Shown here piece after piece: positions 11,931 through 64,000 of a stretch of DNA of 64,000 nucleotides. The stretch's first letter is position 1, and the number at the start of each line of letters is the position of its first letter. The stretch comes from a plasmid: the sequence record NZ_CP082905.1. The stretch is one strand, 5' to 3'. The notes under the pieces are model-generated. The model had not been told where the DNA came from. It did not search any database and saw nothing but the letters and a program-made list of their open reading frames with translations. Both the position numbers and the translations under genes were made by a program.

Positions 11931-12206
11931 CTATTTAAGATAGGCACGAACCAGTTCAATCGTATCGTCAACGGATTTACTGATTTCATGGCTGTAGCTG
12001 TCATTCTGGTCAAAGGTTTCCCGTATGTGGCTCTCCAGCACCTCTGCCATAAGACCGTTAGCTGCTCCGCGAACGGCAGCTATCTGCTGAAGAACGGAAC
12101 GGCATTCAGTGCCATTTTCAAGCGCTCTTTCCAGAGCATCAATCTGACCCCGAATGCGGCGAACCCGGGTAAGGACCTTTTTTTTCTCTTCAGGAGTACT
12201 GGGCAT
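11931..12206 (-). CDS. frmR: formaldehyde-responsive repressor FrmR (CsoR/RcnR family)
   Basis: 91-aa CsoR-like protein directly upstream of frmA. Confidence 0.8.
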
Positions 12207-47828: not shown

Positions 47829-49157
47829 ATGGCTGACACTGCCGACCTGGTTGTTCTTGTCGCCGATCCGGCGGGCTTTGCGGCTGAATTTTTTAGGATA
47901 AATCATGAGGTACCCTTAACTGTCCTGCTTAATGAAGCCCTGTTTCATTACAGGCGCGACCCCGGCTGGTTTGAAGTCATCGTCAGAGACAACCGCTACT
48001 ATGCCTGCCAGCTCGTCACGATTCCCCTGCTCGTATTTATTAAAAAACGCGTTCCCGCCAGGCAACTACAGGCAGCTGCGGAACGAACGCTCGCGCAACT
48101 GAGCATGTATTCAGATACCGCTGATCCGGACGCCTGGATAATGATAAATGCGAATTTTTTCTCCCCCCTTCCCCGTCCCTGCGTAAACCTCTGGCAGGCT
48201 CGTAAATTAAAGAACAGCCTGGAAAAGGCGATATTTACCGATGCGGGTGAATACGCCGGACCGGAAAAAAAGCCTGCACTGCCGGCGGTTAAAAATACCG
48301 CGGAGGCTGCTGATGAAAATGTACCCACGACGCAGAGAAAAAGAAAAAACGGCCCCGACGCGGAGAAAGTCATGGCGCGCGTTATGCTTGGCTGGCGCGT
48401 CAGGGATATATGTGAAGAACAAAACTGCTCTGAAGCCTACGTTTATAACCTGATTAAAAAACGCAAGGGAAAATCCGCGATGGATTACCGCTGGAAGCAG
48501 TGGGAACTGATTTCAGCCATGTATCATGCTGAACCAAAGATGACGCTGGAAGAAATTGAAAAGGCCTGCGGGGTAACGCGGGCGGGAATTTATCATGCAA
48601 TAAGAAAAATAGCAGAGCGTGATGGAAAAGAAATTACGCCCCGTGAGAGAGAAAAAAAACTGACACCGGAAGACGTCGAGACGATAAAACAAAAATTAAG
48701 CCAGGGCATGCTCAGGAAAGATATTCTTTCCGAATACCGTATTTCGGCAGAAACGCTCATCAGATACATAGGCACACGCGATGAGCACAGGGTAATATCC
48801 GGTGACCTCAAAGAGGTTGCGGTGCGACTGCGGATTCAGGGTAAAACGCTCCAGCAGACTGCTGATATTCTCGGTGTGAACCTTGACTGGGTAAAAAAAG
48901 CGTGGAGAGAAAAAAAGGATTCGCCTGTTATTAAAGAAAAACGCGTCAAGTATGATAATCGCAATGTGCTCTCAAAACGCGACCGCGATCAGGCTGTGAA
49001 TGCTGTTCTGCGTGACGGACATACACGCAAGCAGATTTATACGCAGTACGGAATTAATGCACTCACGCTGCGGCGCTATATAAGAGATGCACAAAAAAGA
49101 GAGACAGAAGCATTAAAAGAAGAGGAAAAAGATTCAGACCAGCATAATGAAAAGTAA
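47829..49157 (+). CDS. 442-aa protein with an unknown N-terminal domain and five tandem HTH-like repeats; candidate transfer regulator occupying the traJ/traY locus in reversed orientation
   Basis: Long ORF in AT-rich DNA; repeated units such as ICEEQNCSEAYVYNLIKKRKG, LEEIEKACGVTRAGIYHAIRKIAER, RKDILSEYRISAETLIRYIG, LQQTADILGVNLDWVKKAWREK, RKQIYTQYGINALTLRRYIRDAQK. Confidence 0.6.
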   Translation: MADTADLVVLVADPAGFAAEFFRINHEVPLTVLLNEALFHYRRDPGWFEVIVRDNRYYACQLVTIPLLVFIKKRVPARQLQAAAERTLAQLSMYSDTADPDAWIMINANFFSPLPRPCVNLWQARKLKNSLEKAIFTDAGEYAGPEKKPALPAVKNTAEAADENVPTTQRKRKNGPDAEKVMARVMLGWRVRDICEEQNCSEAYVYNLIKKRKGKSAMDYRWKQWELISAMYHAEPKMTLEEIEKACGVTRAGIYHAIRKIAERDGKEITPREREKKLTPEDVETIKQKLSQGMLRKDILSEYRISAETLIRYIGTRDEHRVISGDLKEVAVRLRIQGKTLQQTADILGVNLDWVKKAWREKKDSPVIKEKRVKYDNRNVLSKRDRDQAVNAVLRDGHTRKQIYTQYGINALTLRRYIRDAQKRETEALKEEEKDSDQHNEK

Positions 49158-49202: not shown

Positions 49203-49604
49203 TTATTTAAAATATTCCTGCAGTTTCCCTGCCACGCGCTCATTGACAGCTTTTAACCACTCAGGCTCAAGGATCATTTCGTTTTTAATGACTTTAGCAG
49301 GATCGACGGTTTCCTTCTGAATGCCAAAAATGGCGTCAGTTATAAAACCGCTGACCAGAACGTTCTTGGCGATAAATTCCAGCTTCTGGTCCAGCGTCTT
49401 TTCTGAAGTGTCCTTGCTGATTTTATTTTCATAAACGCGAAGTCCCAGCTTAAACATCTCCATGATAAAAGCTGACCGGTTCGCCGTTTCGCGTGACTCT
49501 CCGTCTTCAAGCTTCTTTTCAACGTGTGCATCAACCTTTTCTATAAGTGAAAAGGGAACGGTAAGATTGACGCGATTACTTTTGGGTGTGTTCTGCTCTG
49601 ACAT
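49203..49604 (-). CDS. traM: TraM (RHH oriT-binding relaxosome protein)
   Basis: VNLTVPFSLIEKVDAHVEKK...SAFIMEMFKLGLRVYE parallels F TraM; it is adjacent to oriT. Confidence 0.85.
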   Translation of the reverse strand: MSEQNTPKSNRVNLTVPFSLIEKVDAHVEKKLEDGESRETANRSAFIMEMFKLGLRVYENKISKDTSEKTLDQKLEFIAKNVLVSGFITDAIFGIQKETVDPAKVIKNEMILEPEWLKAVNERVAGKLQEYFK

Positions 49605-50017
49605 ATATTTTGCCTCATAACCTGATATTAGAGCGAACCGTAACCGGATGACCGGGCGACGGATTGTTCATGCTGCATGAGAAAATAAACTCAACGCACC
49701 CACTTTTCAAGTAACCACAAAGTAACAACAAAGGGCTTCAACAGTGTCTGCACAGACACTTCTAAGTTCAAATATTAGTAAGTACTTGTTTTTAATAGCA
49801 GCACTTCGCAGTTACTTACAAGGAACTATTAAAGCACTATAAAGTTTCTTTGAAGAAATTTCGTTATGGGCTAAAATTTCTACGATTTACAACTAACTAA
49901 CTGATATTAAATAATTAAAACCGCAAAAATAAATTTGCGAGTGGTGTGTAAAATCCCACTTCTTATGATATTATTGAGTTAATAAGCACCCCCGAACTTT
50001 TCAAATCAGGAGCCGCT
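49605..50017. other. oriT: oriT region: nic-like core GCGAGTGGTGTGTAAAATCCCAC (about 49936-49958), an 18-bp perfect palindrome AGTGTCTGCACAGACACT (49743-49760), A-tracts
   Basis: Resembles the F-family nic region (TTTGCGTGGGGTGTGGTGCTTT); lies between traM and orf169. Confidence 0.7.
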
Positions 50018-50518
50018 ATGCGTTTATTTATACACGCTGCAGCCCTGCTGGCTACAGGCATTTTCTCAGCCAGCGTGAATGCGGACTGTTTTATTAAAGC
50101 CGGTGAATGGTATTCCATTGATCCGGACTACCTGCGTGCTATCGCATGGCAGGAATCCCGCTACAATCCTGCCGCCATAAATACGAACAAAACCAAAGAC
50201 GGAAAGCCCGGCAGCAGCGATTACGGCATCATGCAGATTAATTCGGTGACCATGCGCGGATTACAGAAAGAATATCCCGGCCTCAGTAAAGAAAAGCTCC
50301 TCAGCGATCCGTGCCTGAATATTTTCATCGGTGCCATGCTGCTGCGCCGTAACTTCAATCAGTACGGCACAACGTGGCTGGCAGTGGGAATGTATAATGC
50401 GGGAATGAAAAATATTCCGGTGACGATCAAGAACCGGTATAACTATGCGATGATTATCGACGCACATTATAAGGCCATCAAGGCGGGTAAAATCCCACGT
50501 ACGGCAATCAACGGATGA
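50018..50518 (+). CDS. lytic transglycosylase (orf169 / gene X / P19 family)
   Basis: Signal peptide and SLT-domain motifs (AIAWQESRYNP, GIMQIN, AYNAG). Confidence 0.9.
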   Translation: MRLFIHAAALLATGIFSASVNADCFIKAGEWYSIDPDYLRAIAWQESRYNPAAINTNKTKDGKPGSSDYGIMQINSVTMRGLQKEYPGLSKEKLLSDPCLNIFIGAMLLRRNFNQYGTTWLAVGMYNAGMKNIPVTIKNRYNYAMIIDAHYKAIKAGKIPRTAING

Positions 50519-50777
50519 ATGATTAAAATCCTTATTACGGACTGCATTACTTTTTTTCTTCTGTGCCTGTGCTGGTTTAAATCCGTCAATGCAGTCTGCG
50601 CACAGAATTAACCGTTCCCGGTTCAATGCCGGGTACGGTCAACATGAGTAACGCCCCTGATGTTTTACCGCGCCGTGCAGGAAGAGTTTGCACCGGTTTT
50701 TATTTATTTGTCACCGGTTCAATACCGGTGACGGATAACAGGCCCCAAAAAAATGGAGCCATCCGGCCCCGTGCTGT

Positions 50778-51632
50778 TTATGCTTTCATTTCAGAAAGTA
50801 TTCTGTTTATTTCACCGTGAACGCCCTGACTGTGCCAGAAGCAATCCCGGCCGACCCGGTACAGTTCGCCCGATTTAAATCGTGCCAGCGTAATTTCCTC
50901 TCCCTCCAGGCTGCTGCCATATTTTTTAGCGATGGTATCCACCGCTTTTTGTTTCATGGCATCGGAATAATTTCTGTCAGTAAAGACATAACCCACTCCG
51001 CCGAAAATACGATTAAAGGGAGACGCACTGGAAACAGACATATCCTGCATGGGATCGAAATAGCTGTCTTTATACTTATCAGTGACAGATTTAACTTCCT
51101 CCTCCGTAGGTCCGTCTGTCCAGATAACGCTTACGCTGTCATAACTGCGCTTGCGAACGGAAAATTTAATGCCCGGAAACTTCGCCTTAAGTTCCCTGCG
51201 TATATTTGACGTGACCTGTACCGCGCCGTTTTTATCCTGCGAAAGCGAAGCATATTCTGGTGCCGTTTTCAGACGCTGACATTCCGCTTCATATTTGCGG
51301 GCTTCTTCCTCCCGCGCCTGCTTTTTACGGCGTTCTTCTGCCTCTGCCTGTTTTACGATGCGCGTCGTTTCTTTACCGCTTTTTATTTCCGGGAATATGC
51401 TCCACTGTTTCCCGTAAAGGATACTTTCAGGCAGCGCGCGCGATATTCCGCCGCTCTCGAATGCAATGTCAAATGTCGCATTCCCGCCGTACGAAACGCA
51501 TCCCGAAAGTGAACCCACTGACGCCGGTTTCTGCTCGCCGTGGATCGCAAAAATCACACCCCGTCCGCGATTGTAAAGAACTGTGCTGACAACCTGCCCC
51601 ACAACCAGAGACTGCGCATTCTGTATTTTCAT
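50778..51632 (-). CDS. hypothetical leading-region protein (284 aa) with a coiled-coil/charged central segment
   Basis: ORF only. Confidence 0.4.
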   Translation of the reverse strand: MKIQNAQSLVVGQVVSTVLYNRGRGVIFAIHGEQKPASVGSLSGCVSYGGNATFDIAFESGGISRALPESILYGKQWSIFPEIKSGKETTRIVKQAEAEERRKKQAREEEARKYEAECQRLKTAPEYASLSQDKNGAVQVTSNIRRELKAKFPGIKFSVRKRSYDSVSVIWTDGPTEEEVKSVTDKYKDSYFDPMQDMSVSSASPFNRIFGGVGYVFTDRNYSDAMKQKAVDTIAKKYGSSLEGEEITLARFKSGELYRVGRDCFWHSQGVHGEINRILSEMKA

Positions 51633-51698
51633 ATCAGTTTCCCTTAATGCTGATGAAAGAGAGGCGCGACCCGTTTTCTTCCGGGCCGCAGGACATTT

Positions 51699-52289
51699 TC
51701 AGAACGGGATATCGTTTAAGGTGGTATCAGCGGCACCGGCAGTTACCTGAATGTCTTGCGCAGGATTCAGGGCGCTTTCCAGTGAGATGATGCCGCGTGC
51801 GACGTCGCTGGCCTGGTAATAATCAAGCCCTGCATCACACGCTGCATGAAACCTGTCGAAAAACTTTTTCGCCTCTTCCGCCATTACTGAGGAGGAGCGC
51901 CGTATATACTCCCGGCAGGCGTCCTGCCATGAGGCAGTGCGGTAATAAATTTGTCCCCGGCTGGCAATGATGTAACGTTCCGCAGAGATGTCGCCCACGT
52001 CGTACAGCGCCGTCATGCCACGGGCTGAACTCGTCAGACGCGGCAGCGCGCGATGTCCCGCCGCCAGTAATGCCGCCACTTCAGTTTCATCGAGCAACAG
52101 CACATCTGCGCCATAACTGCCGTTTCGCGTCGGATAGTGCTTTCCCTTTGCAGGCGTGGCGTTTTCATTCCCTGCGTCAGTGTTATGCCAGCGGGTGCGC
52201 AGATCGTTCGCGCTGACGCAGATTTTCTGGCCTTTAACCCATGTTTTGGAAGCTTCTGAAGCGGCGATGTTGACGTTCTGTGTGTTCAT
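51699..52289 (-). CDS. hypothetical leading-region protein (196 aa) with the shared N-terminal leader MNTQNVNIAASEASKTW
   Basis: Starts inside repeat R1. Confidence 0.5.
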   Translation of the reverse strand: MNTQNVNIAASEASKTWVKGQKICVSANDLRTRWHNTDAGNENATPAKGKHYPTRNGSYGADVLLLDETEVAALLAAGHRALPRLTSSARGMTALYDVGDISAERYIIASRGQIYYRTASWQDACREYIRRSSSVMAEEAKKFFDRFHAACDAGLDYYQASDVARGIISLESALNPAQDIQVTAGAADTTLNDIPF

Positions 52290-52897
52290 GCTGGTTCTCC
52301 TCTCAGGTGGTTAATCATGTTTCGGTGAGTTCCTCGCGGCAGAGGGCAAGTAAGCGGCGTCAGGCGGGCAGTGCAAGGGCGCCGCAGGCGTGCATTTCAC
52401 CCTTGCGCTGAACGAATGACGTTGCTACGACCAGCCCTCCGCGGGGAACCATCCGGAACATGAAGGCACCGTTCGTGAGGACAGCATGAACACACCCCGG
52501 ACGTCTCCGACGGCCGGTCCTTACAGGTTGCCGCGCAGCGGTAACCTGCAGAAGCGCCAGCGTCAGCTGGCTGCAGGGGTTGACCTGGCCCTTGCCATCA
52601 GACCCTAGCCGGCAGGCCCGGAACGCTTGCGGTCCGGCGGAGCTTACCGGCTTTGCCGGTTAGCGCAGTGGGGCTGACGACCCGGCAACGCCGGGGAGCC
52701 GAAGGTGGCCATTACGCAGTGGATGTTTTTGACCTTCAGTCAGTGAAAGACAAAGAAGCAGCTGCAGCGCAGGAAGCGAAGAGAGAAGACCATGAGACAG
52801 CACCCCGGAGAGAGAAAGCGCAGGCGAAGGGAGAGAGACGGTGCGTCAGCACCGTCTTTTCCCGGCCCGCAGGGCCGCCGGGTTTTAGCGGTGTTTA
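52240..52897 (-). repeat. leading-region repeat R1 (Frpo/ssi-like ssDNA promoter candidate, includes the RBS and first 17 codons)
   Basis: 658 bp; about 95% identical to R2; hairpin cagtgcaaggg..cccttgcgctg; a TTGACC motif. Confidence 0.6.
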
Positions 52898-52977
52898 CCG
52901 GACAGGATGCCCTGCCCGGAGCTGATGCATAACGTTTTAGCTTGGGTATACCGGCGCCCCGATCGGCGCCGTTATGG

Positions 52978-53280
52978 CTAAAAATCGAACCCGGCAGCCT
53001 TCGCCAGTTTAATGAATTTTTTATAATGCGCTGCGCTTACCGGGCAGATGTGTCTCCCGTCTCGCTGCGTACCTGTGCTGACTGCATAGCTATAGGCTTC
53101 ATTCATTTTTTCCGGGTAGCATTTCCGGAATTCTTTCAATTTTTTCAGAGAACTGAACTCATAAATCTCAAAGTCTGCGTGATCCCCTGCCTTACTCCCC
53201 TCAGCCAGTAAAATTTTTGGGTATTCATTCCATGTTTTGGAAGCTTCTGAAGCGGCGGTGTTGACGTTCTGTGTGTTCAT
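52978..53280 (-). CDS. hypothetical leading-region protein (100 aa) with the leader MNTQNVNTAASEASKTW
   Basis: Starts inside repeat R2. Confidence 0.45.
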   Translation of the reverse strand: MNTQNVNTAASEASKTWNEYPKILLAEGSKAGDHADFEIYEFSSLKKLKEFRKCYPEKMNEAYSYAVSTGTQRDGRHICPVSAAHYKKFIKLAKAAGFDF

Positions 53281-53899
53281 GCTGGTTCTCCTCTCAGGTG
53301 ATTAATTCATGTTTCGGTGAGTTCCTCGCGGCAGAGGGCAAGTAAGCGGCGTCAGGCGGGCAGTGCAAGGGCGCCGCAGGCGTGCATTTCACCCTTGCAC
53401 TGAACGAATGACGTTGCTACGACCAGCCCTCCGCGGGGAACCATCCGGAACATGAAGGCACCGTTCGTGAGGACAGCATGAACACACCCCGGACGTCTCC
53501 GACGGCCGGTCCTTACAGGTTGCCGCGCAGCGGTAACCTGCAGAAGCGCCAGCGCCAGCTGGCTGCAGGGGTTGACCTGGCCCTTGCCATCAGACCCTAG
53601 CCGGCAGGCCCGAAACGCCGCTTCTGGCGGTTCGGCGAAGCTTACCGGCCCTGCCGGTTAGCGCAGTGGGGCTGACGACCCGGCAACGCCGGGGAGCCGA
53701 AGGTGGCCATCACGACGTTGACTTTTTTGACCTTCAGTCAGTGAAAAACAGAGAAGCAGCTGCAGCACAGCAGGATTAACAGCAGCAGGAAGCGAAGAGA
53801 GAAGACTGTGAGACAGCGCCCCGGAGAGAGAAAGCGCAGGCGAAGGGAGAGAGACGGTGCGTCAGCACCGTCTTTACCCGGTCCGCAGGGCTGCCCGCC
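53231..53899 (-). repeat. leading-region repeat R2 (Frpo/ssi-like)
   Basis: Perfect 11-bp IR cagtgcaaggg/cccttgcactg, and a second long near-palindrome. Confidence 0.6.
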
Positions 53900-53955
53900 G
53901 TTCAGCCGCCGGTGAATGCAGCTGCAGGGCCATAAACGGCCCCGCCCTTGTTGCG

Positions 53956-54321
53956 TTACATTTCCTCCAGTTCTGCCTGATAGTGCATTTCTGCCATGCT
54001 GACCAGCGATGCAAATGTTACCTCCCCGCCCGTTATGCCTTCCTGCCCGCACAGGTGCATCAGGTTGGCTATCAGATCCTGAACGGCGGTATATGCATCC
54101 TCTCCCCGACCATCAAGCCCGGTTCGCCTGGCAAAGATCCATAACGCTTCAGCCGCGACCGTTGCCCGATCTGTGTTACCCCAGATAAGCGCCGGACTTT
54201 CTGTGCCTTCAGCCATTGCGGCAATCTCTTTTATGGTGCTCATGGTTACCGGCTCGTGGTTATCGTTCTGTTCAGGGTTTACTGTTGTGGTATCTGTCGG
54301 TAAAGTTGACTGTGTAGACAC
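53956..54321 (-). CDS. hypothetical protein (121 aa) downstream of the RadC-like gene
   Basis: ORF only; holds the position of an antitoxin-like gene in prophage yee/yfj modules, but no recognisable similarity. Confidence 0.35.
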   Translation of the reverse strand: MSTQSTLPTDTTTVNPEQNDNHEPVTMSTIKEIAAMAEGTESPALIWGNTDRATVAAEALWIFARRTGLDGRGEDAYTAVQDLIANLMHLCGQEGITGGEVTFASLVSMAEMHYQAELEEM

Positions 54322-54524
54322 ATTGATCTCCTGTTTTGTGGTCAGTGTTTCTCTGATGCCCCGGCTTCGTCGTGGATACCAGGGGCGGAATCTGGCAGGG
54401 TTAACCCCCTGCCTTTTTTCTGTCCGTTACTCCGGCTTGTATGCCATGAGGGTGATCACGCGCCCCCCCGTACCGGCAAACATATTCTCCAGCGGCTCTG
54501 ACCAGCTGTACTCCCAGCCCGGCA

Positions 54525-55088
54525 TCAGACAAGCCCCTTTCTGGCCATTGATACGGCCTCATTACCTGCCACGATGATGTGATCGATGACCCGCACAGCG
54601 ACCAGCTCAAGCGCTTTTTTCAGGCGTACGGTGATTTGCACGTCTGCGCGGGAGGGTTCGGTACTGAATGAGGGATGGTTATGACTCAGGATCACCGCTG
54701 CAGCGTTCAGCCGCAGGGCTGCGCGAACCACTTCACGGGGATGAATTTCGGTTGATGCAATGCTGCCAATAAATAACTCTTCATAAGCAATCAGCTGATG
54801 CTGGTTGTTCAGAAACGCAACAGCAAAGGTTTCTCTTTCACGTCCGGCTAGTTTTGCCCGGAAAAATTCCTCTGACACTTCTAATGATTCAAAGACGGTG
54901 CCTGCCGGGTAACGGAAATCGACTGCCCGCGTTGCTTCTGTAAGGATCTGGCTGACAGAGGCCATAACATAATTCCCCTGCGTGTCCCGGACGTGCAGGT
55001 GACTGAAAAAGCTGATATTGCCTCCCACTGTTTCCAGCGCGGTTTCTTCTGATTCTGAAAAACTGGTAATGATGCTCTGCTGTGGCAT
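54525..55088 (-). CDS. RadC-like JAB/MPN domain protein (YeeS/YkfG family)
   Basis: HNHPS motif (ILSHNHPSFSTEPSRADVQ); start trimmed to MPQQSII. Confidence 0.8.
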   Translation of the reverse strand: MPQQSIITSFSESEETALETVGGNISFFSHLHVRDTQGNYVMASVSQILTEATRAVDFRYPAGTVFESLEVSEEFFRAKLAGRERETFAVAFLNNQHQLIAYEELFIGSIASTEIHPREVVRAALRLNAAAVILSHNHPSFSTEPSRADVQITVRLKKALELVAVRVIDHIIVAGNEAVSMARKGLV

Positions 55089-55138
55089 ATTGCGTCTCCC
55101 GTGTGACTGGCTGTTATATTTTCCGGCTTTACCGGCTG

Positions 55139-55348
55139 TCAGCTTTCGCTTATCAGAACGAAAAACCGGTGCCGCTGATCGAGTAAAAACTCCCGTGCCT
55201 GCCCGCTTATTCCCGGTCGTGCGGCTTCGGCGGTATAGCGGTTGTAGGTGATGCATTCCGCTCCGGTCATAACGTGGCCGGTGTATGTCACGTATCCTGC
55301 CTGCAGCGGATTTTTCAGCGCGGCCGCCAATCGTTCCTGTGTATTCAT
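55139..55348 (-). CDS. small DUF987-like protein (YeeT/YkfH-like, 69 aa)
   Basis: Size and position between the antirestriction-like and RadC-like genes, as in yeeT-yeeS or yfjX-yfjY modules. Confidence 0.45.
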   Translation of the reverse strand: MNTQERLAAALKNPLQAGYVTYTGHVMTGAECITYNRYTAEAARPGISGQAREFLLDQRHRFFVLISES

Positions 55349-55394
55349 TGCTTTCTCCTGTTTCCCCTGCAGCGTGCTGCAGGGGAATGAATCA

Positions 55395-55973
55395 TTAACC
55401 TTTCAGGCGGGAAAACTGCCAGTGACAGAACGGGCTGTATTCATCTGCTTTCGGCAGGCTGGCCTGCGCATATTTTTTCAGTCCCTCATGTTCTGACCAG
55501 AACAATTCCAGCGCCGCCACGTTAAGCAGTCCCGCTGACTTATATACATTGGTGGTCTGATATTCGTTGAGCTCCACATACTCTTCGTCGCCGATGGGGT
55601 TTGCTGAATGCACGACACGGGTTTCATAGGTTTCCGGTGCCGCGCCAGCTTTGGGTGCAAACACGGCAACGGTAATGAGGAGCTTTTCATGCGGGTTAAT
55701 CAGCATAAGATCTGTTGTGGAGCGGTAACTCCCCGTATCAAATGAAGCCTCGTCCCGTGTAAACGTCGCCGCCGCCAGGTACTCCAGATGCATTTTAAAA
55801 TCGCTGCGCAGCGCTGCGGTATTCACGTTGAACTGCGGATAATCGACGTAAAAAAGATTGCGACGAAAGGCGCGGCGTATAGCCTCATAGCTGATATCTT
55901 CTGCGGGTTTTGTCGTTGAAAATGATGATTCTTTAGATTCTGAAGCCGTGGTGTTGACGTTCTGCTGTGACAT
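55395..55973 (-). CDS. antirestriction-family protein (YfjX/YubI-like) with the leader MSQQNVNTTASESKESS
   Basis: Position at the head of a RadC module, as in CP4-57 yfjX; the family assignment is by recall only. Confidence 0.45.
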   Translation of the reverse strand: MSQQNVNTTASESKESSFSTTKPAEDISYEAIRRAFRRNLFYVDYPQFNVNTAALRSDFKMHLEYLAAATFTRDEASFDTGSYRSTTDLMLINPHEKLLITVAVFAPKAGAAPETYETRVVHSANPIGDEEYVELNEYQTTNVYKSAGLLNVAALELFWSEHEGLKKYAQASLPKADEYSPFCHWQFSRLKG

Positions 55974-56445
55974 GTTGTTTCTCCTGTTCAGGGTTAAGTG
56001 ATGTTTCTCTGAGTTCCTCGCCGTGAGGGCAGAACAGGCGACCGGGCATCAGGCTGAACGCAGGGGGAAACGGCAAAGCCGCAGCCCGCAGGGACCGGGT
56101 GCAGACGTTTAGCTGTGCGACCCTTGCGTGAAGACGCCCGGGTGCCAGGTTTCTGCACGGCGAAGGGGCTCAGGGGAACAAAACAGGACAACAGGTGATG
56201 AACAGGGTACAGCCCCGGAACGGCACACCACGGTGCCGGTCCGGTCCTTACAGGCTGCCGCCTCGCGGCGGCCTGCAGACGCGCCGGCGCCAGCCGGCTG
56301 CACGGGGGTTGACCTGGCCGTTGCCATCAGACCCTAGCCGGCAGGCCCGGAACGCGACGCGGTCCGGCGAAGCTTACCGGCTCAGCCGGTTAGCGCAGTG
56401 GGGCTTGACGACCCGGCTGTGCCGGGGAGCCGGAGGGGGCCACAG
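55924..56445 (-). repeat. leading-region repeat R3 (variant 2, Frpo/ssi-like)
   Basis: Shares the MSQQNVNTTASES leader and the upstream roughly 470 bp with R5 and R6. Confidence 0.6.
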
Positions 56446-57510
56446 AATTTTTGATTTTAATGTCCGCTATGTTCCAGAAGCGGAAGTTGGGATGCCAGAG
56501 ACTCTCTAAAAGTGGATGGTTCTTTTTAGGGAAACGTACAGTGGCGGCAGGCATGATAGAGCTGATAAGCTATGTATAGAGTTAAAAATTCATTTAATCG
56601 CGAGATAATAATCAAATTATGAAAAGAATTATTCCTGATAAAAATTGGTGGGATAACGAGAGTCATAATCGAAATGCTGCAACAGTTTGTCCATACGCTA
56701 ATTCGCATAGCTGCCCTCGATATCATTACAGTGTAGTTCTGCTTAAACGTATTAACATGATAGCGGGCATAACGGATAAAAAAGAGGAGGAGTTGAGTGA
56801 GTATTGGGAAAGAACTAAATTTTCATCTTTATGTGATGAAGAAACCCCCTCGGTTTATTCCAATGAAAATGGCGGCGTTTCATCAATCATTAACTTTTGC
56901 CCTGAAATATCATATAAGTATTTTTACTATTATGCTGATTACATGTGTAAATATGTCGATGGAATTGATCAAGATTCAGGCGTACGCATTGCGGAAAAAG
57001 AAAATTTAAAAAATGACTGGAAGTATTCATGGATGGAAGTTCATCCTAGATTTTATTTGGATTGCGATGTATTTAATCATGTTAAACTGTTTAATGAAAC
57101 TTTGGGAAATGATTACCTAAAAAGATTGCATCCCAATATTGTTCAGCAAATAAGTAGAATGAATAATTGTTTAGATTCCAATGACCCGGCAGGAGCGTTG
57201 CACGCTGCCTCTAACATTTTAGAAACAATGGCGAAAGATATTTCTCAAAATCCAAATGTATCAAATCAATCACTGGGTGGTTTTTTTGAGCAATTCAAGA
57301 AAAATTCAAGCTTACCTGATAACCTTATTGATGCGATTAAAGATATTTACAATTTGCGTAACAGATTACCTACTGCTGGACACGGAAGTCTGGACAAGCC
57401 TGAATTGACTATGGCAGATGCTATAGCTATTGCTGCATTGACAAAAGCGATATTAGAAATTGAATATCGAAGCAAGGCCATCTAATAAGTCAAATTCATT
57501 AACGCTTCAA
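56446..57510. other. AT-rich island inserted into the repeat array
   Basis: Sharp GC drop; it removes the promoter-proximal half of repeat R4. Confidence 0.6.
56619..57485 (+). CDS. Abi_C-like (abortive-infection C-terminal domain) protein, 288 aa
   Basis: C-terminal LHAASNILETMAKDI...IYNLRNRLPTAGHGS resembles the RN..aHG signature of the Abi_C domain; the gene is AT-rich and on the strand opposite all other leading genes. Confidence 0.5.
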   Translation: MKRIIPDKNWWDNESHNRNAATVCPYANSHSCPRYHYSVVLLKRINMIAGITDKKEEELSEYWERTKFSSLCDEETPSVYSNENGGVSSIINFCPEISYKYFYYYADYMCKYVDGIDQDSGVRIAEKENLKNDWKYSWMEVHPRFYLDCDVFNHVKLFNETLGNDYLKRLHPNIVQQISRMNNCLDSNDPAGALHAASNILETMAKDISQNPNVSNQSLGGFFEQFKKNSSLPDNLIDAIKDIYNLRNRLPTAGHGSLDKPELTMADAIAIAALTKAILEIEYRSKAI

Positions 57511-57777
57511 TTCCCCAGCGCGGGACCTTTCTCGGCAAAGAGCATGCACGCGACGGCGATCAAACAAAGCAGTGCCGGCGAAGCCGTATACTTCAGCCTT
57601 GCTTTTTCCAGGCGAGGGGGCGAAACCCGGCCCTCCGCGAGAGAGCCGCTGAGAGATGCCACCGATAAAAGAGGGAATGCATACACCCGGCGCGCCATTG
57701 AGGCGTGACGATAGTAAAGTGATGGCAGACTTATGTCGTCAAGGTGAGGCCGCGGGCGTCAGCCCGCTGAGGCAGTT

Positions 57778-58099
57778 GGTCATTAAAGCCATCAGACCCA
57801 AGCCGGCAGGCCCGGAACGCCACGCGGTCCGGCGGAGCTTACCGGCGCCAGCCGGTTAGCGCAGTGGGGCTGACGACCCGGCTGTGCCGGGGAGCCGGAG
57901 GGGGCCATCAGGATATTGATGCTTTTGACCTTCAATGCGCGAAACCCGGTGACGCAGCTGCATTACAGCAGAAAGATTAACAGCAGCAGGAAGCGAAGAG
58001 AGAAGACTGTGAGACAGCGCCCCGGAGAGAGAAAGCGCAGGCGAAGGGAGAGAGGCGGTGCGTCAGCACCGTCTTTACCCGGCCCGCAGGGCCGCCCGC
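57778..58099 (-). repeat. leading-region repeat R4, distal half only; the proximal half is replaced by the AT-rich island
   Basis: Aligns to R1/R2 positions about 52585-52897. Confidence 0.55.
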
Positions 58100-58158
58100 T
58101 TTTCTCGCGTGGCCAGAGTCTGCAGCAAGCCGGACAGGCTGCGCCCGGCTTAACAGGT

Positions 58159-58890
58159 TCAGGGACGGAACGTCAGCAGTACGGGCAGCGCAAACCGGTC
58201 GGTCATCCTGCTGAATGCGCTCAGCTCACCGGCCAGAATGCTGATATCGAGCATCACGCGCCACAGCGGCTCGCCGTACCACTCCAGCGGATCGATATGG
58301 CGGCATGACACAAACCGCTTCAGCCACGCCAGTATCAGCGACAGAAGATCGCTTTCAAAAATATCCCGCGCCTGCCAGTGCGCATACCATCCTCCCACCG
58401 TCTGCGGCGTGTAAAACGCCAGCTCCAGCGCAGCCTGCGCCAGCCGGTTCTGATAGCGCCTGCGCTTCTGCTCGCGCTCCCGGCTCTCCCGGTTCTGCGC
58501 CCTGCTCTGACGCAGCGTTAAGCGCTTTTCCCGACGCTCCGTGAAACGGACGGCGGTCAGCGGAAACAGCCTTGAGCCGGTATCCTGCGACAGCGGCGCA
58601 GGGCAGCGCTCGCCGCGTGAGGCAATAAGCGTATCGAGCGCAGCCAGGTATTCCCGCGCAGGCGGCGCAGAGCGATCACCGGGTGTGTATTCAGGCATGA
58701 CCCGGCGCAGCTGATCAGCCTTAATGGTGCGTGTCCCGCAGTAATGGCGCATAAAGGCACTGGCGTAGGGGTGCGCGCCGCGCGCCGCTCTGCCCTGCAG
58801 GCGCTTTTCAACCTCGGCAACGGCCAGGCTGATGGCAAAGGTGTACGGGCAGGCGGGAACGATTGAAAGGTGCCGGGGAATGGTATTCAT
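58159..58890 (-). CDS. psiA: PsiA-like protein (plasmid SOS inhibition locus protein A)
   Basis: 243 aa; an AHPYASAFMRHYCG motif resembling the PsiA YPYAGAFFR region as I recall it; leading-region position. Confidence 0.5.
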   Translation of the reverse strand: MNTIPRHLSIVPACPYTFAISLAVAEVEKRLQGRAARGAHPYASAFMRHYCGTRTIKADQLRRVMPEYTPGDRSAPPAREYLAALDTLIASRGERCPAPLSQDTGSRLFPLTAVRFTERREKRLTLRQSRAQNRESREREQKRRRYQNRLAQAALELAFYTPQTVGGWYAHWQARDIFESDLLSLILAWLKRFVSCRHIDPLEWYGEPLWRVMLDISILAGELSAFSRMTDRFALPVLLTFRP

Positions 58891-58941
58891 CAGGTTTCCT
58901 CCTTGTCTGTAGTGACCGCCCGGACGGGCGGTCTGCCGCTG

Positions 58942-60939
58942 TCAGCCTTCGCTGCCCGTTTCGTCTTCGCTGCCGTTTTCCGTCACTGCAGGCTGCAGGG
59001 GTTTCATCCATGCAGGCACCCAGCGGGCATCTTTCATCACCTCTTCAGCAAATTCAGCGGCGTCTCCCTTCTTCATCTTTTCCGCATCGCTGGCATTACC
59101 CGTTTTACCGGCCTCCTTCAGCGCCCCGGTAATCTGCTCTTTGCTCATGCGTTTAAAGAAGCCCTCAGCGCCCGGCTGCCACCAGTCGGCCAGGTCAAAG
59201 CCCAGCGCCATTTCCAGCGTATCGAGGTTACTGGTCTGGCTGCGACCATAAATGCGCTCCTGGAAGCTGCACACCGCCGTGGCGCTGCAAAATCCCAGCA
59301 GCCCCAGCACGTCCCCCGTGCTCCAGCCCATCAGCCAGCGGAAGTCCTGCGACCAGTCTTCTGGGAGTTTCGCCTCCCACTGCGCCTTCTGCTCCTGAAT
59401 GAACTGCCAGGCCTTTGTATCTTCCTTTGCGGTCGTCCCGGCAATCAGCGCGGAACTGTTGTCCGTAAGGCTGATTTTCATCGGGGTTCCGTCATAGTTG
59501 CGGTGGCTGAAGGTGCTGCGGCACAACGTCCAGGTCAGCATGGCAAGCGCGATGTCCGGCTTCGTACTCAGCGCCGCCTGTACCGCCAGTGAACGTTCGC
59601 ACGACATCGAGCGAACCAGCGTGGCGGAGTAGTCTTCGGAAAGCGTCTGCAGGTCTTCCTTATTTCCGGGCTTCGCCTTCTTCGGCAGGTCGGCCTGACG
59701 CTGCACCCCGCGCTGAATAAAGCAGCTGCCGCGCTCAAAGCAGACCAGCGCCCCGGTTTTGTCCTTGTCCGCGCCTGCCCAGCTGCGCTTCAGCCCCGTT
59801 TCTTCCAGCGCGGCAACCTGCTTTTTCAGCTGCGCAACCAGCGCGTCGTCGTCGCTGAGTTTCACCCGGGCGCGAAGTTCGCTCAGCTCTTTATCTTCCT
59901 CCGGCGTCAGCTCCGGGCAGCGCTCCGGCAGCAGGTAATACGTTTTTTTCACCTCGCTGCTCCAGCTGTGCAGACGGCTGTCCATTCTGACTTCAGCCCA
60001 GGCAAACCCTTCTTCTTTCTCGACGGCGGCGGCAATCTGCTGGAGCTTTTCAAGCGTCAGCTGCTCAACCAGCGCCGTATCGATATAGCCCTCGTCTTCA
60101 TCGCTAAACAGGTCGGTGCGAATGGTTCCGCCCGCCGCGAGATAGGCATCTTTACCGATAAAAGCGAACTTTAGTGAGTGGCTAATCGCCGTCTCAGTGG
60201 AGGTGATTAGCTTACGGATGATTTCAGCGGAGGCGTTGTAATACCCCGAGGCCTGTTCCCATACCTCCAGTTGACGCTCATGCGTGTCAGCCAGCGCCAG
60301 CGCCTGACACTGATCGATCGTGATGCTATCGGCGGCCAGCTCGTCAAGAATGGCGGGTGCCAGGCCAGTCAGCTTCAGGCAGCGCTGAACGTGGCGTGAG
60401 CTGTAGCCCATGAGGTCGCCAATCTGCGCTGGTGTTTTGCCCTCGTCTGCCAGCGCCTGAAAACCGGCGATCTGCTCGGCAGGGTGCATATCCTCACGCT
60501 CGCCGTTTTCGACCATTGAAGCCGCCCGCGCCAGCTCCTCAGTGACGCGCTTGACCGGGATGGGCTGATCGGGCTGATACACGCCCTGCGAAACGAGCAG
60601 CTGCATCGCGGTAAGACGGCGCCCACCGCAGGCCACGCCCAGCATCCCGTCAGCCATATCGTGCGCGATCAGGTTATGCAGCAGCCCGACGTTTTTAATG
60701 GTGGCGGCAAGCGACTCGATACGTGACCGGACGTAGATCTTACTGCGCACGTTGAGAGGTGAAATCATCAGTCGCGAGAGTGGGATCATCTCGATGTCGA
60801 TTTTCTCCAGTGCCTGCTCTACCGCCGCTGCTGCAGCTTTGTCAGCTTTCGCTTTCGCGGGACGACGCGTTTTTTTTGTTTTTAAAGATGATGATTCTTC
60901 AGATTCTGAAGCCGTGGTGTTGACGTTCTGCTGTGACAT
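58942..60939 (-). CDS. ParB-like nuclease domain protein (large leading-region ParB/Srx-fold protein) with the leader MSQQNVNTTASESEESS
   Basis: ParB N-terminal domain (LSRLMISPLNVR..., GGRRL, HVQRCLKL) in a protein of about 665 aa. Confidence 0.8.
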   Translation of the reverse strand: MSQQNVNTTASESEESSSLKTKKTRRPAKAKADKAAAAAVEQALEKIDIEMIPLSRLMISPLNVRSKIYVRSRIESLAATIKNVGLLHNLIAHDMADGMLGVACGGRRLTAMQLLVSQGVYQPDQPIPVKRVTEELARAASMVENGEREDMHPAEQIAGFQALADEGKTPAQIGDLMGYSSRHVQRCLKLTGLAPAILDELAADSITIDQCQALALADTHERQLEVWEQASGYYNASAEIIRKLITSTETAISHSLKFAFIGKDAYLAAGGTIRTDLFSDEDEGYIDTALVEQLTLEKLQQIAAAVEKEEGFAWAEVRMDSRLHSWSSEVKKTYYLLPERCPELTPEEDKELSELRARVKLSDDDALVAQLKKQVAALEETGLKRSWAGADKDKTGALVCFERGSCFIQRGVQRQADLPKKAKPGNKEDLQTLSEDYSATLVRSMSCERSLAVQAALSTKPDIALAMLTWTLCRSTFSHRNYDGTPMKISLTDNSSALIAGTTAKEDTKAWQFIQEQKAQWEAKLPEDWSQDFRWLMGWSTGDVLGLLGFCSATAVCSFQERIYGRSQTSNLDTLEMALGFDLADWWQPGAEGFFKRMSKEQITGALKEAGKTGNASDAEKMKKGDAAEFAEEVMKDARWVPAWMKPLQPAVTENGSEDETGSEG

Positions 60940-61545
60940 GTTGTTTCTCCCGTGTGGTTGCATGTGATGTTTCTCCGAGTTCCTCGCCGTGAGGGCAGAA
61001 CAGGCGACCGGGCATCAGGCTGAACGCAGGGGGAAACGGCAAGGCCGCAGCCCGCAGGGACCGGGCGCCGCCGTTTAGCTGTGCGACCCTTGCGTGAAGA
61101 CGCCCGGGTGGCAGGTTTCTGCACGGCGAAGGGATTCGGGAAACGAAACAGAACGCGGAAGGATGAACAGGGCACAGCCCCGGAACGGCACACCACGGTG
61201 CCGGGCCGGTCCTTACAGGTTGCCGCGCAGCGGCAGCCTGCAGAAGCGCCGGCGCCAGCCGGCTGCAGGGGTTGACCTGGCCCTTGCCATCAGACCCAAG
61301 CCGGCAGGCCCGGAACGCCATGCGGTCCGGCGGAGCTTACCGGCTCTGCCGGTTAGCGCAGTGGGGCTCGACGACCCGGCATCGCCGGGGAGCCGGAGGT
61401 GGCCATCAGGATGTTGACGTTTATGACCCTGAGAGGAAGTAAGTTCGCGAAGCAGCTGCCGCACAGCAGAAGCCGCAACAGCAGCAGGAAGCGAAGAGAG
61501 AAGACCATGAGACAGCGCCCAGGAGAGAGAAAGCGCAGGCAAAAG
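60890..61545 (-). repeat. leading-region repeat R5 (variant 2, Frpo/ssi-like)
   Basis: Read directly. Confidence 0.6.
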
Positions 61546-61664
61546 CAGAATAACCGCCGTGGCGGCGCAGCCGCCGCAGCCGTTATCAGCGGCCATTGAC
61601 GTTTGCGGCCTCAGCTGTCGGCACAAATCCGGCCCCGCGTGCGCGGAACCGGCGATACTTTCTG

Positions 61665-62228
61665 TCAGACATCAATGCGGACAATCATCGTGGAAACGTC
61701 TGTGTATGCGAATGCCCCGCATGGAAGCACCTCCTGATGCGTTGCAATATGCTTAAATTCCCGCTGCTGGCGCGGACCATTTGCGCAGACCGCTACAAGG
61801 TTACCGCCCGGCGCCAGCATTTTTAGCGCATGCCGGATATGTTTCAGATCCTCACAGTGGCGGAAAGGTGGATTCATTAAAATCCGATCATAAACGGCCT
61901 GCGGGGCGCAGCTCAGGAAATCCGCGCAGGTTACGGGCACCTCCGGAAATGTGTCTTTAAGATGCTGCGCCAGCGCCGCGTTCATTTCCACACATTCACA
62001 GCGGACCGCAGGCACGGCGGCAAGTACGGCGCGCAGAATGGCACCCGTTCCCGCGCTGGGCTCCAGCACCCGGTTTCCTGGCCGGATATCGGCAAGGGTG
62101 ACAAGCTTCTGACACACCGGATCTGACGAAACAAACAGTTGCGTGTCAGCATGTACCCGGGCGACGGGCTGCATACTGCTGAGTTTCTGTTGCATCTGCG
62201 CAATTCGCGCGCTGAGTTCGGTTCGCAT
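61665..62228 (-). CDS. small SAM-dependent methyltransferase with an NPPF catalytic motif; candidate orphan DNA amino-methyltransferase, though an rRNA methyltransferase fold is possible
   Basis: Motif I VLEPSAGTG and motif IV NPPF; 187 aa. Confidence 0.6.
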   Translation of the reverse strand: MRTELSARIAQMQQKLSSMQPVARVHADTQLFVSSDPVCQKLVTLADIRPGNRVLEPSAGTGAILRAVLAAVPAVRCECVEMNAALAQHLKDTFPEVPVTCADFLSCAPQAVYDRILMNPPFRHCEDLKHIRHALKMLAPGGNLVAVCANGPRQQREFKHIATHQEVLPCGAFAYTDVSTMIVRIDV

Positions 62229-62320
62229 TTTTTTTCTCCCATGCCGGCGCTTGCCGGCATGCTTTGTATAGCTATTTGTATATGCACAATTTCCCCGGCC
62301 ACGCCGGGGAGCCTGGTTTG

Positions 62321-63694
62321 TCAGCGCGGCACCTCTACTGTCTTCATATCGGTGATATACACCGGCGACAGGGTGTAACCCGTGGACATGACGCGGCGTA
62401 TCCGGTAAGCCTTGTGATCGTCACCGGCCGCAATGCCCTTCACCTGTTTAAAATCGGCGTGCTTTTTGCTCCATTCCTCCTTTGTCATGCTTACGAAGCC
62501 CTCACCCGGGTAGTTAACGATCGGCGGACGCTTCGCGGCCGCCTTAGCCGCTTTTGCCTCCTCTGCGCTGGGCGCCTTATATTCGGTGATGCGATCGGGC
62601 GTGATGGTGGTTGTGGCGCCTTCCCGACCCATGAATGAATATTCCGGGGTGACCAGCGAGCTGATTTTTCCGCCGCTGCGGTTTACGCGGATGATGGTCA
62701 GCCACTCACCGCGACTTTTTACCTGGCCGCCCGGCACCATTTCGGTATCTGAGGCCAGCACGCCGCCGTGCTCGTCCAGCATGGCGCGCTCGTAGGCAAT
62801 GCGGTTGCGGTAGTGCGCTGTCCAGCGGCTTAACCGTGTGATGGTGCGTTCATGACAGGGAATGCAGATATCCCGCGCCTGCTCAGCGGTAATAATGTCC
62901 TCTTCGAGGGCAGACCAGATGCTGCGGCTGCCTTCGTACTGGCTTTTTTCCGGCGGGCGCGGGTACTTCTCCAGGGTAAAGCAGCAGTGAAGGTGATCAA
63001 CGTTCGCTATGACAAGAGCCATCGCGCGGTTAAGGTTTTCAGATGACCAGAGTTTGATAAATTTCTGACAGTCCTGCAGGCGGCGATCTGCCTTGCGCAA
63101 ATCGGCCTCAATCTTTTTGATGCGGCGCCAGCGCACGTCCGGGCGCTCTTTGTAAGCCGCGTGACGCAGCGAGGCCTCTGCGCGGCGCTCCCAGTATTCT
63201 GACGTTTCAAACAGGTTTACGGCGCGGCGCATGCCGTTCTCAATTTTCTGCGCGTGCTTACGCGCGCGGCGCTCGCTGTGGTGCCCAACCAGAATTGGCT
63301 GACCGAAAGGAACAGCCGAAGCCAGGCTGTCCACGGCGGCCAGCACCTGCCCTGACTCGGCTGCGCGCTTTTCGCTGTACTCTTCAAAACGTTCCGCGCG
63401 CTCCTCCTGGCGGTCAAACAGCGTCTGATCTTCGTCTTCAATTTCGCCCGCCAGTTCGATTAGCAGGTCTTCCCGATCGGGCGTCCACATTGGCGCCACA
63501 AAAAGTGCCTGGCGCGGCGCGTATTTAAAGCCCGCATCTTTAACACGTTGATACGTATCCTCATCCAGACGGTGCAGCGAATACAGGCGCAGCTTGTTAT
63601 CATCCGGTGAATACGTTGCACGGTAGTTTTCGCGTTTAAAAAAAGATGATTCTTTAGATTCTGAAGCCGTGGTGTTGACGTTCTGCTGTGACAT
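62321..63694 (-). CDS. hypothetical leading-region protein (457 aa) with the leader MSQQNVNTTASESKESS
   Basis: Starts inside repeat R6. Confidence 0.5.
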   Translation of the reverse strand: MSQQNVNTTASESKESSFFKRENYRATYSPDDNKLRLYSLHRLDEDTYQRVKDAGFKYAPRQALFVAPMWTPDREDLLIELAGEIEDEDQTLFDRQEERAERFEEYSEKRAAESGQVLAAVDSLASAVPFGQPILVGHHSERRARKHAQKIENGMRRAVNLFETSEYWERRAEASLRHAAYKERPDVRWRRIKKIEADLRKADRRLQDCQKFIKLWSSENLNRAMALVIANVDHLHCCFTLEKYPRPPEKSQYEGSRSIWSALEEDIITAEQARDICIPCHERTITRLSRWTAHYRNRIAYERAMLDEHGGVLASDTEMVPGGQVKSRGEWLTIIRVNRSGGKISSLVTPEYSFMGREGATTTITPDRITEYKAPSAEEAKAAKAAAKRPPIVNYPGEGFVSMTKEEWSKKHADFKQVKGIAAGDDHKAYRIRRVMSTGYTLSPVYITDMKTVEVPR

Positions 63695-64000
63695 GTTGTT
63701 TCTCCTGTTCAGGGTTAAGTGATGTTTCTCTGAGTTCCTCGCCGTGAGGGCAGAACAGGCGACCGGGCATCAGGCTGAACGCAGGGGGAAACGGCAAAGC
63801 CGCAGCCCGCAGGGACCGGGTGCAGACGTTTAGCTGTGCGACCCTTGCGTGAAGACGCCCGGGTGCCAGGTTTCTGCACGGCGAAGGGGCTCAGGGGAAC
63901 AAAACAGGACAACAGGTGATGAACAGGGTACAGCCCCGGAACGGCACACCACGGTGCCGGTCCGGTCCTTACAGGCTGCCGCCTCGCGGCGGCCTGCAGA
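63645..64000 (-). repeat. leading-region repeat R6 (variant 2), truncated by the window end
   Basis: Identical to R3 over the visible length. Confidence 0.6.

Follow-up and report, generated by a model that had tools for sequence, protein, structure and literature searches.

How does it come about that unrelated leading-region genes of a conjugative plasmid begin with the same codons, and what are the repeats that supply these codons? This question is raised by a stretch of 64,000 nucleotides (nt) of the plasmid record NZ_CP082905.1, referred to here as the window, which is part of an F-like (MOBF/MPF_F) conjugative plasmid with its nearest relatives in Pantoea, Mixta, Erwinia and Serratia. 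Five minus-strand open reading frames (ORFs) of its leading region begin within repeats, and the encoded proteins start with the leader MNTQNVN(I/T)AASEASKTW or MSQQNVNTTASES(K/E)ESS. It is proposed, with a probability of about 0.68, that these repeats are the heads of leading-region expression cassettes, arranged around a single-stranded DNA (ssDNA) promoter of the Frpo/ssi lineage.

The six repeats, which had been delimited in an earlier reading of the letters alone (the sequence-only reading), were confirmed at essentially the same positions by a repeat search and a MAFFT alignment of the copies (Table 1). Their G+C content is 0.60-0.70, compared with about 0.50 in the flanks, and their organization is modular. 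On the plus strand, from the gene outwards, module L consists of 17 codons, the ATG, a Shine-Dalgarno sequence (SD) and then a long inverted repeat, the hairpin. It is followed by module M, with two small hairpins and then the 120-nt element M2, and by module P, a purine-rich tract closed by the hairpin GACGGTGC-GTCA-GCACCGTC and then TTTT; this hairpin was not called as a terminator in a terminator consensus scan. Two subtypes of module L are present, namely subtype a in R1 and R2 (99% identity over 300 nt) and subtype b in R3, R5 and R6 (100% identity between R3 and R6 over 300 nt). It had been claimed that each of the six copies feeds a gene. This holds for the five full heads (R1, R2, R3, R5 and R6), which supply the start of a gene, but R4 is a headless fragment of M2 and P that contains no promoter copy and is not upstream of any minus-strand gene. 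The leader core GTTGACGTTYTG occurs five times in the window, each time on the plus strand and within a leader, and 0.02 occurrences are expected by chance. In the case of R5, the listed ORF (58942-60963, ParB) opens eight codons upstream of the leader ATG. Of the five cassette genes, Pfam assigned one to the ParB-like proteins and one to DUF3560; the other three products have no family, although one of them is a homolog of F YgeA.

The tra operon is located on the minus strand and extends from position 47 kb or so down to traI (20904-26024). A synteny comparison showed that the order of traM, nic-like motif, lytic transglycosylase (SLT) gene and leading-region genes is the F arrangement. In F, the nic motif GTGGGGTGTGGTGCTTTT is located on the strand that templates the leading-region genes ssb, psiB and ygeA. 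This motif was not found in the window with up to five mismatches allowed; a shorter motif related to F nic, TTTGCGAGTGGTGTGT, was spotted by eye and then confirmed. Because the gene order is that of F and the nic-like motif resembles the F nick region, the plus strand of the window is the transferred strand. Its entry proceeds 5'→3', beginning at about 49.95 kb and heading for 64 kb. The cassette genes all lie on the minus strand and the plus strand is the template for every one of them, in agreement with the claim of the sequence-only reading that the entering strand templates the leading-region genes.

The plus strand of each head folds, as DNA, into one imperfect hairpin of 215-290 nt that encloses the ATG; its lower stem holds the SD and the ATG together with the first 3-10 codons. 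The fold of R1 (52272-52505) has a dG of -72.4 kcal/mol and a z-score of -9.4, and no shuffled sequence folds as well. For R3 (55945-56234, plus strand), a dG of -76 kcal/mol and a z-score of -6.3 were obtained, again with no shuffle as good, and the complement has a z-score of -3.6. The perfect 11-bp dyad cagtgcaaggg/cccttgcactg that had been pointed out in R2 is present and forms the hairpin apex. To follow the structure across relatives, 45 distinct copies from 27 loci were collected through a pattern scan of a genome collection and from plasmid records. In all 45 copies, folding favors the transferred strand over the complement, by 13.2 kcal/mol on average, and the CAT of the start codon is base-paired in 44 of them. 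In the alignment of subtype b (28 sequences, A2), 97% of the cells are paired and 16 pairs are changed on both sides; in that of subtype a (17 sequences, A3), these values are 96% and 30 pairs. The observed covariation was matched by none of 500 column shuffles in either alignment, and slid controls were 36-51% paired. The ssDNA fold anticipated in the sequence-only reading is therefore present, with compensatory changes in addition.

Such a structure could also act in RNA, as a long hairpin in the 5' untranslated region that masks the SD and AUG of transcripts made from double-stranded DNA (dsDNA), either as an attenuator or as a processing site. RNA in the mRNA sense is indeed predicted to fold at -133 to -144 kcal/mol with the SD and AUG buried. 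However, the strand favored by the fold in all copies is the opposite, transferred one, and the one-sided changes are mainly G·T wobbles on that strand, which correspond to C·A mismatches in the mRNA sense. As the elements are in addition homologous to DNA-level promoters, a role in RNA is considered very improbable.

The homology to such promoters is recognizable at different levels. A BLAST comparison of the F Frpo regions with the window resulted in a match of 43 nt at 77% identity (E 5e-4) and a 21-nt block, GTGCATTTCACCC, so that the similarity to F itself is specific but marginal. Within the 43-nt match, the F sequence CAGGTCCCCGCAAAACGTCAAAACCGCGGCTCCCGAAACTCAA in the Frpo lower stem aligns with the ATG and leader of the window, CATGTCACAGCAGAACGTCAACACCACGGCTTCAGAATCTAAA, F having AGG in place of ATG. 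Matches to the class-1-like Frpo' 5 (E 2e-6), to Frpo* 4 and 2 (E 3e-36 to 8e-12) and to Frpo* 5 (E 4e-10) were also obtained, where the threshold used by Samuel et al. is E 1e-6. Identity to Frpo* 4 and 2 amounts to 89% over 111 nt in M2 and to 73-74% over 120 nt in the 5' arm of the hairpin, and identity to Frpo* 5 to 79-89% over three blocks. F Frpo1 and Frpo2 likewise fold into a long hairpin. Moreover, intermediates from Klebsiella and Salmonella with an F-type hairpin top and the leader bridge both groups; in one Klebsiella copy, the A/T-rich top of the F type is joined to the leader (MNTQNVNVKTATKESS…). Together with the conserved fold, these matches make descent from the Frpo/ssi lineage, with the repeats as distant homologs of F Frpo, probable. 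The part of the earlier claim that concerned ColIb fared differently, since the ColIb ssi sequences gave no match to the window repeats. Neither the region upstream of ardB in F nor that upstream of the methylase gene had a match in the window, so no sequence similarity to class 2/3 was found. The kind of element is known and the subfamily has already been catalogued as Frpo*, with a predicted promoter function: Samuel et al. (Nature 2024) list Frpo* 2/4 (from the insect-gut metagenome OFEI01000013.1) and Frpo* 5-7 (from Salmonella) in their Supplementary Table 2, which also contains Frpo' 5.

A comparison with the known elements shows what is shared and what is different. F Frpo1/Frpo2 (ssiD; 'ssp1', class 1) and ssi1-3 of ColIb-P9/pESBL are leading-region repeats upstream of operons templated by the transferred strand, as is the case here, and in them, too, the transferred strand forms a G+C-rich, imperfect hairpin, 220-320 nt long, with small hairpins after it. 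F Frpo has the GTGCATTTCACCC motif in common with the window, as well as the lower stem …CCGCGGTTTTGACGTTTTGCGG…, whose counterpart in the window is the leader. Unlike F Frpo, the window repeats have neither the A/T-rich hairpin top nor the TGGACA box. Furthermore, the repeats of F and pKpQIL end about 20 nt before the gene's own SD and ATG and the leader homolog is untranslated, with AGG for ATG, whereas the window repeats include the SD, the ATG and 17 codons, placed within the stem. The Frpo* elements of Samuel et al. 2024 belong to the same family as the window repeats and are listed as 400-nt upstream regions that end at the start codon; a coding extension, a shared N-terminus and the L, M2 and P modules are not described there, and the word 'N-terminal' is absent from the text. 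The class 2/3 ssDNA promoters (Wen et al., NAR 2025; Frpo3/ssp2, ssp3) are also leading-region hairpin promoters, for which 5' ends have been mapped in IncI1. A literature search with the leader strings, and with 'N-terminal' combined with leading-region promoters, gave no description of the leader. The sequence-only reading had likewise named no description of shared N-terminal codons between paralogous repeats, and the embedded translation start looks undescribed so far.

In the F plasmid (L001), the untranslated leader homolog inside Frpo (8559-8643 and 13950-14035) is open in one frame. Upstream of ssb this frame continues into ssb, and upstream of ygeA it forms a short ORF, MMGAENQREEKAG, whose TGA overlaps the ygeA ATG. 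F YgeA itself starts with MSTRNIHVNTAS, which looks like a second, diverged leader.

The distribution of the leader was determined in the 27 loci and through DNA searches of a plasmid collection. The genome-collection pattern contains 17 specified bases, and about two-thirds of its matches were chance matches in unrelated phyla, which were discarded. In the loci examined, 49 ORFs open with M-x-x-Q-N-[VI]-N-[TVI], and these fall into 15 unrelated families once the first 18 residues are removed. The families include DUF3560, ParB, RadC/JAB, DUF5983 and YgeA-like proteins, and further families of 566, 330/314/196, 192, 167, 130, 124/117, 123, 121, 91 and 88 amino acids (aa). The leader start is translated, because in all 15 families the leader is in frame, the SD is strong and the conserved domains start ahead of any alternative methionine. 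The orthologs from pKpQIL-IT, F and E. billingiae lack the leader and begin with unrelated N-termini of their own. In the DUF3560 proteins, the homologous part begins with residue 22 in the window and with residue 16 in pKpQIL, and in DUF5983 with residues 28-30 compared with residues 10-12 of the ortholog. The existence of leader-less orthologs elsewhere indicates that already existing genes acquired the head by grafting. DNA searches located subtype b at 89 places in 50 plasmids (Erwiniaceae, Cronobacter, Enterobacter, Phytobacter and Kosakonia) and subtype a in 1,060 plasmids, mainly as single copies in Klebsiella.

Two further leader-like starts lie near each other in the window. RadC carries a relic leader (Table 1), and in the loci L002, L060 and L040 RadC has a full cassette head. 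Just upstream of the window RadC, a 69-aa ORF (55330-55348, minus strand, ATG 55348, MNTQERL…) may hold a second relic, of the subtype-a leader. Outside the enterobacteria, an enterobacterial leader fused to a 123-aa ORF was observed on a 481-nt contig labeled Paenibacillus camelliae (L049); its presence in a Firmicute contig is probably due to assembly contamination.

Whether the leader is maintained as a peptide or as DNA can be addressed by its pattern of substitutions. Across codons 2-17, substitutions at first, second and third codon positions numbered 32/18/26 and 37/8/33, without wobble bias and with first-position changes as frequent as third-position changes. The core CAG AAC GTC AAC is near-invariant including its third positions, as both asparagines are AAC in 45 of 45 copies, valine is GTC in 44 of 45 and CAG or CAA is found at glutamine. 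The leader has a non-coding counterpart in F, as in all four class-1 copies of pKpQIL-IT. Codon 2 (AAC for asparagine or CAC for histidine) and the 3'-arm position with which it pairs change together (pair 57/306), which indicates that the coding sequence is part of the selected DNA structure. The leader is therefore probably a by-product of constraint at the DNA level, being the translated part of a nucleic-acid element and not a functional peptide, and the 17 codons are shared because the start codon is placed inside that element. The label 'leader peptide' of the sequence-only reading is probably a misnomer, and the peptide is most likely a tolerated, hydrophilic N-terminal tag. In a competing explanation, the leader is a functional shared tag, involved in rapid turnover, localization or recognition by the conjugation machinery, and the repeats are partly kept for the peptide. 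M-x-(Q/T)-Q-N-V-N-T is conserved in 49 ORFs of 15 families from several genera, always in frame and with the least variation at second codon positions, and F-like systems have been reported to translocate leading-region proteins (PMC8406263). A tag function is nevertheless unlikely: first-position changes are no rarer than third-position changes, residues 2, 9, 11 and 13-17 vary freely, the invariant core is fixed at wobble positions too and is homologous to non-coding DNA of F and pKpQIL, orthologs function without the leader, and the leader is outside every Pfam model. The relic leader of RadC has also drifted, as expected of decay once the hairpin is lost.

A sigma-70 consensus scan gave six promoter-like sites compared with 7.5 expected, none of which is in any repeat on either strand. 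The non-template arm towards the genes is the 3' arm, read on the plus strand from loop to base. The best candidate in subtype a is TTGCGC (52403-52408), a 17-nt spacer and TACGAC (52426-52431), with a 6/12 match. Hexamers (TTGCGC/TTGTAT, 17 nt, TACGAC/TTTGAT) are found in the same column in 11 of the 17 subtype a copies, with a match of only 6-7/12, and the hexamer at the -10 position overlaps a conserved 7-nt internal loop (52427-52433). Subtype b has an internal loop at the equivalent place, and consistent hexamers were not found. A convincing -35/-10 pair reconstituted in the stem was found in neither subtype. The motifs that had been put forward as promoter elements have the wrong geometry towards the genes. 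TTGACG, a motif of the leader at the base of the hairpin, falls on the template arm and was ruled out as a -35 box, and TTGACC was ruled out as it lies outside the hairpin without a -10.

The proposed mechanism combines these features. On the incoming single strand, the hairpin would serve the host RNA polymerase as a duplex-like promoter whose internal loop at -10 is already open. Transcription would start in the stem, about 45-50 nt upstream of the ATG, and proceed towards the origin of transfer (oriT) along the incoming strand, and the cassette genes would be expressed ahead of complementary-strand synthesis, which would then remove the hairpin and switch the promoter off. An mRNA begun inside the hairpin would carry one arm only and leave the SD and AUG free, and read-through RNA with both arms would refold over the SD and AUG, confining translation to transcripts started on ssDNA. 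In RNA folding, the SD-AUG segment has an unpaired probability of 0.64-0.68 from the putative start, compared with 0.27-0.36 in the full-length RNA. This lock may be special to the present subfamily, because the SD is outside the hairpin in F and pKpQIL. Recombination between heads would homogenize them within a plasmid and graft them onto genes that have their own starts elsewhere, with modules M and P traveling along.

Alternatively, the hairpins could be single-strand initiation signals or roadblocks for the complementary strand, with the genes using ordinary promoters. F Frpo also primes DNA synthesis and the F stem-loop ssp2 stalls conversion (10.64898/2026.01.09.698686; PMC7690428), and both the weak -35/-10 match and the presence of M2 and small hairpins without an obvious promoter role would fit such a function. 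However, a dsDNA sigma-70 consensus promoter was not found for any cassette, every head is located exactly at an operon 5' end with a built-in SD and ATG, and homologous class-1 elements are needed for early expression in vivo (PMC9849209). Promoter and initiation or roadblock roles are, moreover, compatible. Hairpins without promoter function are therefore regarded as improbable.

Several points weigh against a cassette head with an ssDNA promoter and have to be set beside this evidence. Transcription from ssDNA is, in this subfamily, a prediction by analogy; published experiments concern related class-1 elements of F and IncI1 (PMC9849209, PMC12672017, PMC11541004). The transcription start is placed by its position, homologous to that of the class-1 TGGACA box, and the read-through lock is a prediction from computed folds. 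Agreement with -35/-10 is low (6/12 for TTGCGC-17-TACGAC), and subtype b has no consistent candidate. The conserved core GTTGACGTT is only partly and inconsistently paired, so the model leaves its conservation unexplained. Samuel et al. 2024 rank the Frpo* elements as low-certainty candidates, with a Frpo-like fold and divergent -35/-10. Finally, the copies are kin by descent and gene conversion, and the covariation and the 45/45 counts consequently overstate the number of independent events.

Exchange of heads is suggested by their relationships. R3 and R6 are identical over 300 nt despite their different genes, and across loci a head is usually closest to one that precedes a different gene of its own plasmid, and not to the one on the gene's ortholog elsewhere. 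Examples are the heads of ParB and RadC (98.4%) and of a 167-aa and a 196-aa protein (100%) in L002, and those of a 474-aa and a 130-aa protein (96.8%) in L044. The cassette content varies among related plasmids, and toxin-antitoxin pairs or AT-rich plus-strand genes are found between cassettes. This pattern supports exchange of heads by homologous recombination. The portable module and recombination route suggested in the sequence-only reading are in line with the leader on 15 families, the leader-less orthologs and the clustering of heads by plasmid, and the comparison of related plasmids has indeed shown the same leader attached to different genes. Several near-identical copies with an internal long inverted repeat could also be scattered miniature inverted-repeat transposable elements or insertion sequence remnants. 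The copies are, however, co-oriented relative to the transferred strand in all loci examined and are always at operon 5' ends, fused in frame; terminal inverted repeats, target duplications and a transposase are absent, and the repeats are confined to leading regions, with none in the other 50 kb of the window. The probability of a mobile-element origin is accordingly close to negligible. Integron cassettes (attC) provide an analogy only, as these are also exchangeable genes, each with a strand-specific folded hairpin. Unlike in integrons, there are no integrase and no attC core sites, the element is at the 5' end and supplies expression signals, and exchange presumably occurs by general homologous recombination.

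The identical segments of R3 and R6 (55919-56218 and 63640-63939) are 300-nt direct repeats, 100% identical and 7.7 kb apart, that flank psiA, parB, a methyltransferase gene and DUF3560. They form a ready substrate for RecA-dependent deletion, and no toxin-antitoxin pair is found between them, unlike in L060 and L061.

M2 can be considered separately from the hairpin. This element of about 120 nt forms a four-way junction, for which 56 distinct copies were aligned. Compensatory changes in one arm include GC↔AU in 21 sequences and GC↔CG in 18, and M2 is slightly more stable on the transferred strand, in 51 of 56 copies and by a mean of 2.7 kcal/mol. An Rfam cmscan of 48-64 kb with E up to 1 gave only a chance snoRNA match at 50281-50332, outside the repeats, and ARAGORN detected no tRNA in M2. 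The element is present at 8,968 places in 4,404 plasmids, of which 3,621 are Klebsiella plasmids, and is almost always unannotated. It is found 3' of Frpo-type hairpins, for instance after each of the four class-1 Frpo' copies of pKpQIL-IT (L064), and sometimes alone, as in R4. By analogy with F ssp2 (10.64898/2026.01.09.698686), it is hypothesized that M2 could be a barrier to complementary-strand synthesis; it could alternatively be a priming site. A wider reading, in which a two-state switch makes only ssDNA-started transcripts translatable, head and M2 form a portable early-expression unit and M2 is a new ssDNA element for blocking or priming, is tentative and, taken as a whole, rather doubtful.

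Table 1. Cassette heads, their genes and neighboring features in the window, with M2 copies of pKpQIL-IT.
Feature	Position	Strand	Description
traM	49203-49604	-	AT-rich gap after traM holds the nic-like motif
oriT nic-like motif TTTGCGAGTGGTGTGT	49934-49949	+	Between traM and the SLT gene; similar to the F nick region
SLT (lytic transglycosylase) gene	50018-50518	+	Followed by a run of minus-strand genes
R1 gene	51699-52289	-	196-aa protein without known family, N-terminus MNTQNVNIAASEASKTW
R1 translation start	52239-52303	-	SD AGAGGAGA 52296-52303, ATG 52289, 17 leader codons MNTQNVNIAASEASKTW
R1 hairpin, subtype a	52272-52505	+	ATG and SD in lower 5' arm; apex at about 52385
R1 module M1	52506-52593	+	Small conserved hairpins GGTTGCCGCGCAGCGGTAACC and GCGCCAGCGTCAGCTGGCTGC, 3' of the main hairpin; compensatory changes (helices 14, 15)
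R1 module M2	52594-52712	+	Conserved four-way junction GCCATCAGACCC…GGTTAGCGCAGTGGGGCTGACGACCCGGC…
Other M2 copies	53586-53710, 56323-56443, 57788-57908, 61286-61406	+	
R1 module P	52716-52900	+	Terminal hairpin and TTTT at 52837-52860
Other P copies	53724-53895, 57981-58103, 61468-61549	+	
R2, subtype a	53230-53905	+	L, M and P; hairpin about 53271-53488, perfect 11-bp dyad at apex
R2 gene	52978-53280	-	Leader MNTQNVNTAASEASKTW, ATG 53280; 100-aa homolog of F YgeA
Relic leader on RadC	55038-55110	-	ATG 55088; starts MPQQSIITSFSESEE; SD and leader recognizable, core AACGTCAAC decayed, hairpin absent upstream
R3, subtype b	55923-56445	+	L and M, without P; hairpin 55945-56234; SD 55980-55985
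R3 gene	55395-55973	-	Leader MSQQNVNTTASESKESS, ATG 55973; 192-aa protein
R4, headless	57788-58103	+	M2 and P only; without hairpin, SD and leader; just downstream of psiA, beside AT-rich insert
R5, subtype b	60889-61600	+	L, M and P; hairpin about 60912-61200
R5 gene	Real start 60939	-	Leader MSQQNVNTTASESEESS; 665-aa ParB-like protein
R6, subtype b	63644-64000	+	Cut by the window end
R6 gene	62321-63694	-	Leader MSQQNVNTTASESKESS, ATG 63694; 457-aa DUF3560 protein
M2 in pKpQIL-IT (L064)	3105-3254, 5827-5955, 12001-12131, 15385-15516		

Several other features of the region were observed. Between the truncated R3 and the headless R4, an AT-rich island (56450-57500, G+C 0.32-0.38) holds a plus-strand ORF of 288 aa (56619-57485) with no match in Pfam or PADLOC; in related plasmids, other plus-strand genes (such as DUF4145) or toxin-antitoxin pairs are found at equivalent positions between cassettes. 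The 196-, 192- and 121-aa proteins likewise had no PADLOC match. Flanked by traM and the pilin end of the tra operon is a 442-aa gene (47829-49157, plus strand), which Pantoea relatives keep as a 'hypothetical protein'. Its product, with a weak match (E 5e-7) to a helix-turn-helix model, mad1, may regulate transfer. The genes ssb and psiB are absent from the 14-kb leading region of the window (50000-64000). In the relatives L002, L060 and L061, they are farther from oriT, past DUF3560, and the window probably ends before them.

For plasmid specialists, these results are a useful and moderately surprising extension of what is known, without a new principle. Leading-region single-strand promoters set which anti-defense and establishment genes act in the first minutes in a new host. 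A promoter of the Frpo type can bring its own translation start, which can be grafted onto arbitrary genes, as indicated by the 15 families, and such grafting is a simple way to assemble and reshuffle arsenals of early genes. The head can be regarded as a natural, standardized expression cassette for ssDNA delivery, and the leader as a cheap tag by which plasmids of Erwiniaceae, Enterobacter and Klebsiella can be searched for genes that are expressed early and have no known function. The unannotated M2 adjoins promoters that are under current experimental study and is present in thousands of clinical Klebsiella plasmids.

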